A DNA stretch of 64,000 nucleotides from a virus, in IMG/VR virus record IMGVR_UViG_3300000976_000009, positions 109,151 through 173,150 of that record. The stretch is one strand, 5' to 3'. Within the stretch, counting starts at the first letter, position 1. The number at the start of each line of letters is the position of its first letter. The translations under genes and the position numbers were made by a program. The notes beneath the pieces are model-generated. The model made no database searches. It had not been told where the DNA came from and was given only the letters and a program-made list of their open reading frames with translations. Positions 33,454 through 44,435 of this stretch are shown here, piece after piece.

Positions 33454-33817
33454 GGGGATGACTTTGGATTCGACAATCTATAGTCGTAAATAGTAAGCAT
33501 GTACTGCGAGGTAAATAAGCAGTTAAAATAATAGATGCAACTTTTTTAAATGGAAATATTTTTAATATTGACGAAAACTTCCTTGCTAACGCTTCTGTAG
33601 AAGTAGTTGCTGGAGAGGCAATCGCAGCCTAACCGATGCGTTACGGGTTAATAGCCCACAGGAACGAACAATCTCAAGTTGCTAAAATAGGGAAACGTTG
33701 CTTGACAGCTCTAACGTAAAAAATAGTCAAAGATTTGCTAATTTATAAAAATTAGATAAACATGTAGAAATCCGTTGAAGAATAGATTACACGAGGGTTC
33801 GACCCCCTCCATCTCCA
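33454..33817 (+). ncRNA. ssrA: tmRNA
   Basis: 5' GGGGATGACTTTGGATTCGAC; 3' T-arm GAGGGTTCGACCCCCTC + CATCTCCA; G3.U70 pair; tag frame 33552-33632 GNIFNIDENFLANASVEVVAGEAIAA* after TAAAT. Confidence 0.93.
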
Positions 33818-33937
33818 CGCAAACGCTTTTATACTAAATTCGCTAGTGTAAAAATAAGACCTCATATGGGGACAGAAAAGCTCACAATCGGTGGGCTTTT
33901 TTTGTTTCCAGAAGTATTTATACTTAAAGGACTTATT

Positions 33938-37833: not shown

Positions 37834-38503
37834 ATGGAAACTATTTATTTAGAAATCAAAGATGCCCAAGGTGGTAAAGAATCGAAGTTATTGGTGGGAG
37901 ATATGAGAGATATCTACATCAAAACAGCGAAGAATAATAACTTCAAATGAACTGCAATTACAGATAGAGACGGATTTGTCTGTCTATGTCTTTAGCGGTG
38001 TTGGTGTAAAGAAAGTATTCAAGAACGAAGTAGGAACCCATACGTGGCAACGAGTATCTCCAACTGAAAAAAGAGGGAGAACCCATACTTCATCAATCAC
38101 GGTAGCAGTATTAGATAAACCAAAATACAATGAAGTCGAAATCAGACCCGATGAAGTTCGTATAGAAAGGACTATTGGTACTGGGAAAGGTGGTCAAAAC
38201 AAAAACAGGAGAAGTACTTGTATTGTTATGACACACTATGCAACAGGAATAAAGGTTGTACGTGATGGTAGAAAACAACACAAGAATTTAGAGGATGCTT
38301 ACAAGGAAATGAAGAAGCGAGTAAATGATTACCATAAGAATGGTCACATTGAAAATGAATCATCCCAACGTAAGCAACAAGTTAGTGTTACTGATAAGAG
38401 AAGAACCTATAAAGTTAAGACTGGTTTAGTTGAAGACCATATAACAGGTAAGTCAACTAAGATTAAGAATATCCTTAGAGGTAAAATCGAATTACTACAA
38501 TAA
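37834..38503 (+). CDS. Class-I peptide chain release factor homolog lacking domain 1; needs UGA readthrough (37948-50) and a +1 frameshift at CTT-TAG (37990-95); about 222 aa
   Basis: LEIKDAQGGKES..DM..IY, then *TAITDRDGFVCLCL, then +1 SGVGV...NEVGTHTWQRVSPTEKRGRTHTSS...GKGGQNKN...RRTY; collinear with RF1/RF2 domains 2-4. Confidence 0.8.
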
Positions 38504-40624: not shown

Positions 40625-40697
40625 AACTAATATTTATAAATAAAAAAACCCACAGCAATTGCTGTGGGTTTTTTTATGTTTGAATATATTTATAGAT

Positions 40698-41276
40698 ATG
40701 ATGAAGATTGGTAAAATATATGAATCATTAATTAATGAAATTCAAAGTGGTGGATATAGAGCGTATCATGGAACACCTAAAGAGATAAATAAATTTGTCG
40801 ATGATTTTGTTGGTGGAGAAGATGCCCACGACCAAGAGGGACCAGGTATTTATTTCACTACTGATTTTGAGGATGCCAGTGGTTATGGGTCATACATTTA
40901 TTCAGTTAGAATAAATGGGGATAAATTTTTAGATGATGAAAATCCAGCATCTAATGTTGATGTTGAAGAATTGGTATCTCTAATTAAAATGAGTGAAGAT
41001 TGGGAAATGAATGCTCAAGATTGGGCTGAGGACCCAGAACATGGTGCTTATGAAGCAGCACATAGTGCTATCCAATATAATGATACTGAAAGAGATGTCT
41101 TCCAACAAATATGGGTCGATTTCTATAGATATAAAGCAGTTGACTATGTTAGAAATATGGTAAAATTAGGTTATGATGGGATGGTTGTTACTGGTTATAG
41201 GGACCGTGAAAACATCAAACATATTATAGTTTACAATCCATCAATAATTGAAGTTATAGATTTAGATAGAATATGA
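40698..41276 (+). CDS. ADP-ribosyltransferase-fold protein (putative)
   Basis: AYHGT..F, GPGIYFT....A..Y, GYDG, IIVYNP. Confidence 0.5.
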   Translation: MMKIGKIYESLINEIQSGGYRAYHGTPKEINKFVDDFVGGEDAHDQEGPGIYFTTDFEDASGYGSYIYSVRINGDKFLDDENPASNVDVEELVSLIKMSEDWEMNAQDWAEDPEHGAYEAAHSAIQYNDTERDVFQQIWVDFYRYKAVDYVRNMVKLGYDGMVVTGYRDRENIKHIIVYNPSIIEVIDLDRI

Positions 41277-41909: not shown

Positions 41910-41941
41910 TTTGGACAATTGAAATATCTTTACTATATTTG
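41910..41941 (+). promoter_or_regulatory. Bacteroidota-type promoter for the ncRNA-tRNA(CUA)-pth2 unit
   Basis: TTTG-N20-TATATTTG. Confidence 0.7.
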
Positions 41942-41944
41942 TAA

Positions 41945-42072
41945 TGTGTTTGAGAGAGGTACAAATCACTAGGATGCCAAATTCCTGTCGCTAGTGGTCG
42001 TCTTCTTATGAAGCTCATAGGTCCGCAAGACCTATTAACCCCAGAGTAAAGGATTGTGACGGGTTAAACACA
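41945..42072 (+). ncRNA. Unknown structured RNA (about 128 nt)
   Basis: Ends pair (TGTGTTTGA/TTAAACACA); hairpins CACTAG/CTAGTG and ATAGGTC-CGCAA-GACCTAT; begins at the predicted TSS. Confidence 0.5.
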
Positions 42073-42076
42073 AACT

Positions 42077-42157
42077 GGGAATAGAATGAATTGTACACGG
42101 CTAGTACGAGTCAGCCTCTAAAACTGATAATATGTGGTTCGAGTCCACCTATTCTCA
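42077..42157 (+). tRNA. Atypical amber-suppressor-type tRNA (anticodon CTA)
   Basis: GGGAATA/TATTCTC-A, 9-nt connector, GTAC/GTAC D-stem, TCAGC-CTCTAAA-ACTGA (CTA at 42118-20), GTGG-TTCGAGT-CCAC. Confidence 0.7.
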
Positions 42158-42183
42158 CTAATTAAAAACAAAAAACAAAAGTT

Positions 42184-42540
42184 ATGAACACTTAGATTAG
42201 TACAACAGAAAAATTAAGAGTAGTTTCAAGAAGAGACTTACACATTGGCGTTCAAGCCACACAAGCTGGTCATGCAGCAATTCAATTTCAACATGAACAT
42301 TCAGATAAAGCCTCAGCGTGGTATAATATTTCAAACCACTTAGGATTCTTAGCTGCAAAAGACGAGCAAGAATTAAAAGAGCTCATTCAAAGAGCCGAGA
42401 AAAGAGGACTTAATATTTCAATTTTTAGAGAACCAGACTTAGATAACGTTATTACGGCAGTAGCTATTGAAGCTTCGGACGATGGTAGACGTATTACTAG
42501 TCAGTATCCATTATTAGGGAAGGGGGTGGTCTCATGCTAA
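42184..42540 (+). CDS. Pth2-like peptidyl-tRNA hydrolase with an in-frame TAG at codon 4 (not in ORF track)
   Basis: MNT*ISTTEKLRVVSRRDLHIGVQATQAGHAA...W...L.AKDEQEL..L...FREPDLDNVITAVAI...YPLL; no other ATG in frame. Confidence 0.78.
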
Positions 42541-42797
42541 TAATGGATGATACAAAGAAAAGGGAAATTATCTTTCACTTTAACAAGAAACATTTAGAAG
42601 ACCCAACGATTCCAATGTGGGTGATTAAACACAAGGGTGTGAGCCACTATGTTAATCACATAGACGTGGACTCTGGAGTCGGTTTCACAACCAAAGAGAC
42701 TCCAGATAACCCACGAACAAAGGGTAGTTTAAAATTTAAAGGAAAATTGAAGATTAGTGTTGACAATGGTGATATCCTAGCGTATATTTATTCATAA
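42534..42797 (+). CDS. Hypothetical protein
   Basis: ORF track. Confidence 0.55.
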   Translation: MLIMDDTKKREIIFHFNKKHLEDPTIPMWVIKHKGVSHYVNHIDVDSGVGFTTKETPDNPRTKGSLKFKGKLKISVDNGDILAYIYS

Positions 42798-42808
42798 ACA
42801 GAAATATT

Positions 42809-43033
42809 ATGGAAAATGAGAAAACGTTAGGTGAGAGCCGAGTAAAGATTGATTTCAATACAACAAATGATTCGTTGGTTGACCAAATTAAAAGAAAGTC
42901 AGCAGAACTGATTGACCTTTGTGAAGAAATTAGAGCTAATGGTTCAAGTGAAAAACAAAGGGTATTATCTTTAGCACAAACTGGGTATGAGGATGCTTGC
43001 ATGTGGGCTGTTAAAGGAAACTTCACTGATTAA
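42809..43033 (+). CDS. Small protein with Acb2/Tad1-like hairpin motif (tentative)
   Basis: R.LSLAQT.YEDACMWAVKG resembles the EEA.MWA.K motif of phage cyclic-nucleotide sponge-like hairpin proteins; by-eye similarity only. Confidence 0.4.
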   Translation: MENEKTLGESRVKIDFNTTNDSLVDQIKRKSAELIDLCEEIRANGSSEKQRVLSLAQTGYEDACMWAVKGNFTD

Positions 43034-43045
43034 TCAGTGAGGAAT

Positions 43046-43117
43046 GGTCGGGTGCTCCGAGTGGCTAGGGACAACTCCGCAAGAGTTGATAGGGATGTTC
43101 GAATCGTCCCCCGACCT
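43046..43117 (+). tRNA. tRNA-Cys(GCA), with C at position 33
   Basis: GGTCGGG/CCCGACC-T, CAACT-CCGCAAG-AGTTG. Confidence 0.8.
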
Positions 43118-43280
43118 CAAAAAAACATGTGATTAATATTTATTTTAAATAATCTTATATTATAATAGAAGTATTAAGATGGTATTTCATCTTAAAGTTC
43201 TTTTTTTTAAAGCTCCTACCAAAGTAGGAGCTTTTTTTGGTTTAAATTTGGATATTTATTATTAAATTGTTATATTTGCA

Positions 43281-44435
43281 ATGAAAGAGTTTATTAGAAA
43301 TAGAATTAGAGAAAGTCTTATTATGGAGAACAGAGTAAAATTTAGTATTCCGATACCAGCAGACATTAATGCGATAAAAGATGTGTTCGTTAAAAATGGT
43401 CACAAATTATTTGTCGTTGGTGGTGCGGTTAGGGATTCATTACTTGGCAAGTCACCAAAGGATTGGGATTTAGCTACTGATGCAGTACCAGATAAAGTAG
43501 AAGAGATGATGAAGGGTGCTGGACTTAGAACAATTCCAACAGGTAAGCAATTTGGTGTTATTAATGTTTTTACCGAAACGGATGAATACGAAATTGCAAC
43601 ATTTAGAAAGGATATTGGTTCTGGTAGAAGACCAGATGAAGTTGAATTCACAACAATAGAACAAGACGTTAAAAGGAGAGACCTTACAATTAATGCATTA
43701 TTTTTTGATATCGATACTGGCGAAGTAGTTGACCTAGTTGGTGGAATTGAGGATTTGAAAAATGGTGTTGTTAGAACTGTTGGTAAGGCTGAGGATAGAT
43801 TTGGTGAGGATAGACTTAGAATACTTAGAGCAATTAGATTTGCTGGAAGATTTGGTTCTGAACTTGACCCAGCAGTAGATAGTGCACTTAATAACGATTC
43901 TTCATTAGAAGGTGTTTCTGGTGAGAGAATTAGAGATGAATTCCTTAAGGGATTGAGAACAACTAAGTCAGTTGTACATTTCATGAGATTAAATGAGAAG
44001 TATGGATTACTAGACCAAATTTTTGATGGTCTTAATGTAAATAAGGATTTCATTGAAGAAAAAGAACCAGCGATTCAATTAGCTTGGGTATTAGTTAATA
44101 ATGAACCGACTAAATTAACTAAAGATTTGAATAAGTTAAAATACTCTTCAAATGAAATTAAAGCTGTTACATTCTTAGTGGCATTAACTGATTTCAGAGC
44201 AACGGGTGTTGTACAGTTCAAGAAACTACAAATGAAGTCTGGAGTACATTCAAATTTGATTAAGAAGTTCGCTAAGTTAATTAACTTTGATGAAACAATG
44301 CTCACAGCATTCCTTGAGTTCCAATTAAGTGTGAATGGACAAGATGCCGAGGAAGCTGGGATACCAAAAGGACCAGAGATGGGGATATGGATAAACCAGA
44401 AAGAGGTCGATAATTTTCAAGCACTACTAAATTAA
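43281..44435 (+). CDS. cca: CCA-adding tRNA nucleotidyltransferase
   Basis: VVGGAVRD, KDWDLAT, EIATFR, DVKRRDLTINA, RFGEDRLRILRAIRF, SGERIRDE; almost no tRNA here encodes CCA. Confidence 0.88.
   Translation: MKEFIRNRIRESLIMENRVKFSIPIPADINAIKDVFVKNGHKLFVVGGAVRDSLLGKSPKDWDLATDAVPDKVEEMMKGAGLRTIPTGKQFGVINVFTETDEYEIATFRKDIGSGRRPDEVEFTTIEQDVKRRDLTINALFFDIDTGEVVDLVGGIEDLKNGVVRTVGKAEDRFGEDRLRILRAIRFAGRFGSELDPAVDSALNNDSSLEGVSGERIRDEFLKGLRTTKSVVHFMRLNEKYGLLDQIFDGLNVNKDFIEEKEPAIQLAWVLVNNEPTKLTKDLNKLKYSSNEIKAVTFLVALTDFRATGVVQFKKLQMKSGVHSNLIKKFAKLINFDETMLTAFLEFQLSVNGQDAEEAGIPKGPEMGIWINQKEVDNFQALLN

Follow-up and report, generated by a model that had tools for sequence, protein, structure and literature searches.

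The window, a stretch of 64,000 nucleotides, is part of a complete phage genome of 353 kb, and the unit described here lies on its plus strand. A match to TTTG, 20 nt, TAnnTTTG, which we take to be the promoter consensus of Bacteroidota, is located at 41910..41941 (G000 151060-151091); genome-wide, this pattern occurs 70 times in the forward sense, whereas its reversed control occurs 4 times. It is followed at 41946..42072 by a folded non-coding segment (z -2.49; no Rfam match), a counterpart of which occupies the same place in the metagenome contig L205 (863-1021), where it is 73% identical and carries paired changes. A search for further copies returned two viral matches in unrelated contexts, and a second pattern returned none. 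Next come a tRNA with a CUA anticodon (42077..42157), an A-rich, unstructured leader (42158..42183) and a gene encoding a protein of the PTH2 fold (42184..42540). Downstream are an 87-aa ORF which overlaps the stop of the PTH2-fold gene (42534..42797; a conserved neighbour in the nearest clade, with no family), an Acb2/Tad1 hairpin-domain protein (42809..43033; PF24729, E 1.6e-12), a called tRNA-Cys(GCA) (43046..43118) and a predicted terminator-like hairpin (43209..43234), which would close the unit. Beyond the hairpin and on the same strand, 43281..44435 encodes a nucleotidyltransferase of the CCA-adding/poly(A) polymerase family (PF01743, E 1.2e-37), a candidate for maturing the CUA tRNA. 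An ART-PolyVal ADP-ribosyltransferase domain is found upstream (40659-41276), and a phage tmRNA, another ribosome-rescue part, at 33454-33818.

The PTH2-fold gene opens with ATG AAC ACT TAG (42184..42195), so that codon 4 is an amber stop (42193-42195), and ATT, a purine-U context, comes next. The 114 open codons which follow end at TAA 42538-42540, giving a protein of 118 aa if the TAG is read through. There is no in-frame ATG in the gene besides 42184, and the earliest GTG or TTG is codon 111 past the TAG. This arrangement, on which the original prediction was built, is confirmed on the window sequence, as is the distance of 26 nt between the end of the tRNA and the ATG. Two sequencing runs of the likely source sample match with 0 differences. 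The assignment to the PTH2 family also holds, with the part after the TAG matching PF01981 at 39.1 bits (E 9.8e-10, cut-off 23). The claim that gene callers miss this ORF does not always apply: the protein database contains a product from a 1.3-kb contig in which the TAG is translated as Q, an entry we read as a code-15 gene call. Scanning the whole genome for early TAG gates yielded two candidates, the PTH2-fold gene and one antisense frame. A scan of the genome for mid-gene TAG targets found none; it requires 40 upstream codons and thereby missed the release-factor TGA described below.

TAG is an ordinary stop in this genome. Among 399 ORFs of at least 100 aa, 313 end in TAA, 49 in TGA and 37 in TAG; coding coverage is 0.80 under code 11, 0.83 with TAG as sense and 0.82 with TGA as sense. 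We therefore assign the standard code, since TAG closes 37 of these ORFs and coverage gains no more from treating it as a sense codon than from treating TGA so, in agreement with the prediction that the genome is not globally recoded. The code-15 signature was likewise absent from 40 stretches of 20 kb sampled from 21 related genomes (samples, not whole genomes). Global recoding of TAG was rejected on the standard code here and in 21/21 sampled relatives.

The CUA-anticodon tRNA is atypical in its arms. It has no encoded CCA, its discriminator is A 42157, and the anticodon loop CT-CTA-AA and the 31:39 mismatch (C31.A39) are as had been described. The 9-nt connector reported before the D-arm is one valid numbering, but the lowest-energy fold (z -1.75) has a connector of 6 nt, together with an 8-bp acceptor, a 6-bp D stem and a 4-bp T stem. 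ARAGORN, proposed as a check, misses this tRNA at default settings but calls it at a lowered threshold, and the Rfam tRNA model gives it 22.2 bits, below the gathering score of 29. The tRNA of contig L205, which ends before the TAG position, has 11 differences, eight of which form four compensatory pairs, one turns a G.U into a G-C, and two are C32U and A73U. In a contig from run X5, which keeps the TAG, six of 9 differences form three compensatory pairs. The connector and anticodon are identical in both contigs and the window. Judged from these changes, the tRNA is real although odd, and its fold is under selection.

Most other relatives have a CUA tRNA that folds as an ordinary cloverleaf. 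Across the family the tRNA bodies are very variable, the discriminator being A in 53, G in 24, U in 10 and C in 2 of 89 CUA tRNAs, and their acceptors share nothing conserved by which a specific enzyme could recognise them. A 31:39 mismatch is present in 27/81 CUA tRNAs vs 23/227 sense tRNAs. Compared over the whole body, the nearest sense tRNA is Lys in 32/99; the anticodon arm gave no clear winner, and an origin from tRNA-Trp was not borne out by this comparison. As to charging, the window phage encodes a glutamine-tRNA ligase (G000:C1:210931-212574; TIGR00440 631 bits, cut-off 425.8), which makes Gln a fair guess for this phage. The GlnRS Pfam family PF00749 is matched in just 3/20 other genomes, so that host synthetases must serve in general; the phage GlnRS was set aside as a part of the module on the same count. 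UUA-anticodon tRNAs were also called, at G000:C1:188241-188313 and in loci L004 and L005, in the latter two 0.3-0.9 kb after a gate-less Pth2-like gene.

Conservation of the early stop was assessed in 15 + 80 (the best 80 of 107) + 8 loci plus 8 annotated records. Seven rows were set aside (1 incomplete, 6 cultured phages treated separately) and identical genes were merged, leaving 87 distinct loci including the window. A locus was scored as gated if an ATG is followed by 1-5 codons and a stop and if the sequence from there to the domain is free of further ATG codons. By this rule 70/87 loci are gated, and the stop is TAG in 70/70, TAA and TGA being found in 0. The TAG is codon 2 in 3 loci, codon 3 in 40, codon 4 in 18, codon 5 in 7 and codon 6 in 2. 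These loci are related and do not represent 70 independent events; a quick tree of the family was used only for spread, and of the 29 clusters formed at 60% identity, 21 contain a member with TAG when a looser rule is applied. Downstream of the TAG, dN/dS is 0.08-0.27 in 10/12 pairs (two saturated), indicating purifying selection. The TAG is followed by purine-U in 67/70 gated loci vs 7/37 ordinary TAG stops of the window genome, a context which looks like an RNA signal because it also occurs in 23/25 unrelated amber minigenes and because the distance from the TAG to the first conserved strand varies. Backup stops after the TAG are not enriched (6/25 within 3 codons; TGA 18/40). A second TAG lies near codon 35 in the gated genes of L078, L092, L094 and L100.

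A CUA tRNA is present in the fetched flanks of 60/70 gated loci, at most 500 nt away in 40, so that both the early stop and the adjacent tRNA proposed for relatives were recovered. Among the ten gated loci lacking a flanking tRNA, four have a CUA tRNA elsewhere in the record, one is a contig equal in length to one of those four, and four are fragments 2-8% complete; in L048, a complete gated genome, none was found by the pattern and ARAGORN checks. Flanks of 9/17 loci not classed as gated also contain a CUA tRNA, so the linkage between tRNA and gene is not explained by the gate alone; four of these 17 (L010, L068, L071, L088) have a nearby in-frame TAG but fail the rule. No CUA tRNA was detected by pattern in the complete gate-less records RaK2, L090 and L005. 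Because the loose tRNA pattern matched its control as often as the target, the candidates were judged by ARAGORN checks, low-threshold CUA calls without tRNA arms (L120, L178, L199) being discounted; absences are soft, since a second pattern missed the known Bxz1 tRNA.

This distribution bears on whether the locus could be a pseudogene, a sequencing error or a product of global TAG recoding. Scores of the window tRNA under default thresholds and the Q-containing versions in the database would fit such an origin, but the gate is kept across phages of several host phyla, the protein is under purifying selection, the tRNA changes in compensatory pairs, and the code is standard here and in the sampled relatives, making it most improbable. 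We give an equally slight chance to the idea that the TAG encodes a special, pyrrolysine-like residue needed by the protein. ARAGORN labels CUA tRNAs as Pyl by their anticodon, and the window tRNA has unusual arms. Against this, most relatives have ordinary cloverleaves, the position of the TAG floats relative to the domain, and gate-less homologues have Thr, Gln or nothing at the site. The pyrrolysine reading was rejected, as the complete phage genome G000 has no match to the synthetase family PF01409 (controls 14/14) and no stable hairpin was found 3' of the TAG (z -1.22).

We then consider where translation starts. The TAG could be the true stop of a minigene, with the protein restarting at ATT 42196 or a similar codon and the tRNA a bystander. 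ATT is indeed the codon after the TAG in 46 of the 70 gated loci, and a downstream ATG or GTG is available in XacN1, Xoo-sp13, L068, L088 and three mycobacteriophages. However, in another 18 gated loci the next codon is GTA (11), GTT (4), GGC, AAT or AGA, all poor starts. Under the looser rule, 19/77 TAG loci have a Shine-Dalgarno (SD)-like motif, and in 18/19 the spacing to the upstream ATG is 5-9 nt; from the same motifs to the codon following the TAG it is 15-25 nt. A restart would also be indifferent to the identity of the stop, and TAA or TGA would do as well as TAG, yet neither occurs in any gated locus. Since the spacing fits the upstream ATG and the stop is exclusively TAG, initiation at ATT 42196, named beforehand as one refutation of the readthrough proposal, is disfavoured, and we regard restart as very unlikely. 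The same two observations, together with the preserved fold of the tRNA, argue for readthrough, and on these sequence grounds it is very probable that the gate is read by the phage CUA tRNA.

The arrangement extends to phages in culture. A gate (ATG, one or two codons, TAG) and a genomic CUA tRNA are present in 10/15 cultured phages examined, namely XacN1, Xoo-sp13, RAS14, ME3, CBB, BF, fHe-Yen9-04, Arash, RsoM2USA and pT24, whose hosts are Proteobacteria and Bacteroidota. In XacN1, Xoo-sp13 and RAS14 an HD-type domain precedes the PTH2 domain in a fusion, and the TAG is found at the N-terminus of this fusion; in XacN1 and Xoo-sp13 an ATG lies five codons past the TAG. Gates were absent from RaK2 (downstream ATG) and avDM6 (divergent gene), and a CUA tRNA was not found in either. 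The mycobacteriophages Bxz1, Myrna and ScoobyDoobyDoo have a start codon, TAG and GTG in succession, with a CUA tRNA close by. Their first codon is 6-7 nt after a -10-like hexamer (L166 2495-2503, L098, L103; by our own spacing count), which suggests that translation may begin without a leader and meet UAG directly afterwards, although these genes may start at the GTG instead; a sigma-70 scan of the Bxz1 stretch found no promoter. In the Salmonella phage Arash, the anticodon of a tRNA annotated as Phe (L163 3816-3887) is CUA, and the start given for the Pth2-like gene in the annotation is an internal one. For XacN1, the published analysis reports, in its main text, two CUA tRNAs and an in-silico readthrough of 18 amber stops that gave no target (PMC5852040); it names ORF295 as the phage's hydrolase, and the gated XacN1 gene identified here is ORF364.

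The product is a protein of the PTH2 fold outside the curated Pth2 enzyme families. A model of the post-gate protein was predicted with a pLDDT of 94, and its best Foldseek matches are all Pth2, with the archaeal and eukaryotic enzymes 2zv3, 3erj, 1q7s and 1xty sharing the fold (TM 0.70-0.77) and the QxxHA motif. It misses the equivalog cut-offs of TIGR00283 and NF003314 (28.2 vs 82 and 31.3 vs 126) and differs from those enzymes in having no GK-motif lysine, the position of which falls in an alignment gap, and in the replacement of the DAGxT loop by FxEPD. Both traits run through the family: a Lys four residues before QxxHA occurs in 0/220 family proteins having the motif, and FxEPD stands in place of the loop in 284/299; an acidic residue remains. 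Lys, Asp and Thr are presumably the catalytic set of Pth2. The missing lysine, with the two missed cut-offs, indicates that the chemistry may differ from that of Pth2, while the invariance of Q, H, W, S and FREPD points to a kept function. In the missing GK lysine and the FxEPD loop the protein is, we assume, nearer the PTRHD1-type branch. It probably works on tRNA 3' ends, and whether it would retain classical Pth chemistry is evenly balanced. The PTH2-fold branch to which it belongs counts 1343 clusters at E 1e-10 or better.

Two other genes are linked to the same logic. An HD-type partner, which shows no more than a weak resemblance to the HD region of a nucleotidyltransferase (E 0.02), is fused or adjacent to the PTH2 domain in 25/32 long matches (L096 961-1485, L099 1788-2351, L161, L162, L164, L165, L168). 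It is itself stop-gated, by an in-frame TGA in CBB, BF and fHe-Yen9-04 and by an early TAG in RsoM2USA; no such partner is present in the window genome. Secondly, a short RF1-like release factor gene on the plus strand of the window (37834..38503) needs two recoding events: a TGA (37948-37950) has to be read through, and at CTT TAG C (37990-37996) the frame has to shift by +1. The latter is a second UAG site on which the CUA tRNA could act. This gene is stop-gated in 13/13 related loci, ten having two in-frame TGA, two CTT TAG C only and one a single TGA; its motif is PPT in 12 and SPT in the window. Amber minigenes ending in Pro-Pro-stop were also observed near the Pth2-like gene (25 loci picked; e.g. 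L025 3340, L026 3351, L042 3690, L092 3845), each before an ORF of unknown function. They make up the set of 25 in which 23 have purine-U after the TAG, none of five following genes had a PHROG family (5/5), and no credible Pro-Pro amber leader was found in the window genome.

We propose the following mechanism. The host-type promoter at 41910-41941 would drive one transcript of tRNA and gene, running to the hairpin at 43209-43234. The CUA tRNA would be cut out, receive its CCA, possibly from the enzyme family encoded at 43281, and be charged. Ribosomes would start at 42184 and most would release a tripeptide, with RF1 and the CUA tRNA competing at codon 4 and the full protein being made in proportion to the tRNA's wins. 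The continuing fraction would rise when RF1 is scarce, occupied or disabled, so that the protein would appear chiefly at times of poor termination at UAG. Its predicted task is the recycling of tRNAs that are damaged or still loaded with peptide. The original idea that the hydrolase is made upon UAG readthrough is thus borne out as regards the gate, the conservation of TAG alone and the linked tRNA, but suppressor and RF1 limitation, which it offered as alternatives, do not exclude each other: tRNA and RF1 would compete at one codon. Provided that the phage tRNA does read the gate, we consider it somewhat better than an even prospect that its purpose is to sense failing UAG termination and switch on tRNA recycling, a reading favoured because other rescue or repair genes are also stop-gated, namely the release factor in all 13 loci and, in four of the cultured phages, the HD gene.

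Two other uses of the same gate were weighed. The protein might act directly on the CUA tRNA, for instance by deacylating it, and so limit its own synthesis, with competing damaged tRNAs relieving the brake. The tight linkage, which extends to the gate-less L008, L012, L111 and L112, is consistent with such feedback, as are the diverged active site, the standing of the PTH2-fold gene as the only plausible in-frame TAG target found in the window genome, and the variability of the tRNA bodies, which a generic reporter substrate could show. Yet the CUA tRNA of relatives serves other targets (Pro-Pro amber minigenes; the HD gene of RsoM2USA), partner genes have UGA gates without a dedicated tRNA, and the acceptor offers no conserved feature to a specific enzyme; we hold feedback to be unlikely. 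Similarly improbable is a gate that senses nothing, a fixed dial or timer which would hold a risky enzyme at a low level or postpone it until phage tRNA has built up. Pth2-type enzymes can attack formyl-Met-tRNA. The excess of 31:39 mismatches over sense tRNAs would suit a suppressor that is weak by design, aborting translation at codon 2-6 costs little, and CCA has to be added to the tRNA beforehand. The same end could be reached, however, by a weak start site, with no tRNA to maintain, and release-factor genes, in which gates of this kind serve as known sensors (prfB), follow the same logic. Returning to the sensor, a more extended version is offered tentatively and with less than even confidence: in large standard-code phages, a private amber tRNA, outcompeting RF1, would sense termination crippled by host defence or infection and switch on a stop-codon regulon comprising the PTH2-fold protein, the HD partner, the Pro-Pro leaders and the release-factor shift site, with the lysine-less PTH2-fold protein having a new tRNA-directed activity.

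A close known parallel is the autoregulation of prfB (RF2) by a +1 frameshift at CUU UGA C (see the abstract of PMC13245932). In both cases an early in-frame stop ties a translation factor to the recognition of that stop; here, in contrast, a dedicated tRNA would carry the ribosome in frame across a UAG codon, and the gene encodes something other than a release factor. Our analysis suggests that the mechanism likely works as the prfB sensor does, but with a suppressor tRNA of the phage's own and under the standard code. In pyrrolysine and selenocysteine systems, too, a special tRNA decodes a stop codon in few genes, but in the present case no dedicated synthetase and no downstream structure was found, and the residue is apparently not needed. 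The Mimivirus eRF1 gene needs readthrough plus a frameshift; it parallels the release-factor gene at 37834-38503 and not the Pth2 gate, and concerns a eukaryotic factor with no suppressor tRNA. Code-15 phages share a phage-encoded amber tRNA, their CUA suppressor tRNAs having led to the proposal of recoding as a regulatory device (bioRxiv 10.1101/2021.08.26.457843). Those phages use TAG as a sense codon across many late genes, whereas here the code is standard and one or few gates are the targets. In its relevant passages, from which the word "hydrolase" is absent, the same work (Borges et al.) describes a suppressor in a phage of standard code as one stage on the way to recoding. For the PTH2 proteins of jumbo phages, Iyer et al. 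2021 (PMC7824862, section 3.4.9) put forward a role in repairing RNA and rescuing ribosomes, the activity being predicted there as it is here. Fold and proposed job are the same, but neither an amber gate nor a linked tRNA is mentioned, and "suppressor" occurs 0 times in the main text. No description of an amber gate in a phage Pth2 gene was found in a literature search that included PMC5852040, PMC7824862, bioRxiv 10.1101/2021.08.26.457843, PMC13037316, PMC10732093, PMC3488237 and PMC13023423; few subscription journals fell within its scope, and the supplementary files of the XacN1, Iyer and Borges papers may be relevant to novelty.

These results name a probable target for amber tRNAs on record without one, in XacN1 and in nine other cultured phages, and this assignment is directly testable. 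They also indicate that a widespread phage gene is annotated with the wrong start, and flag a large branch of the PTH2 fold the chemistry of which is predicted from its fold. If the proposed mechanism is true, a natural suppressor tRNA would act as a one-gene switch rather than as a change of the code, and phages would have a reason to keep amber tRNAs before any recoding evolves.
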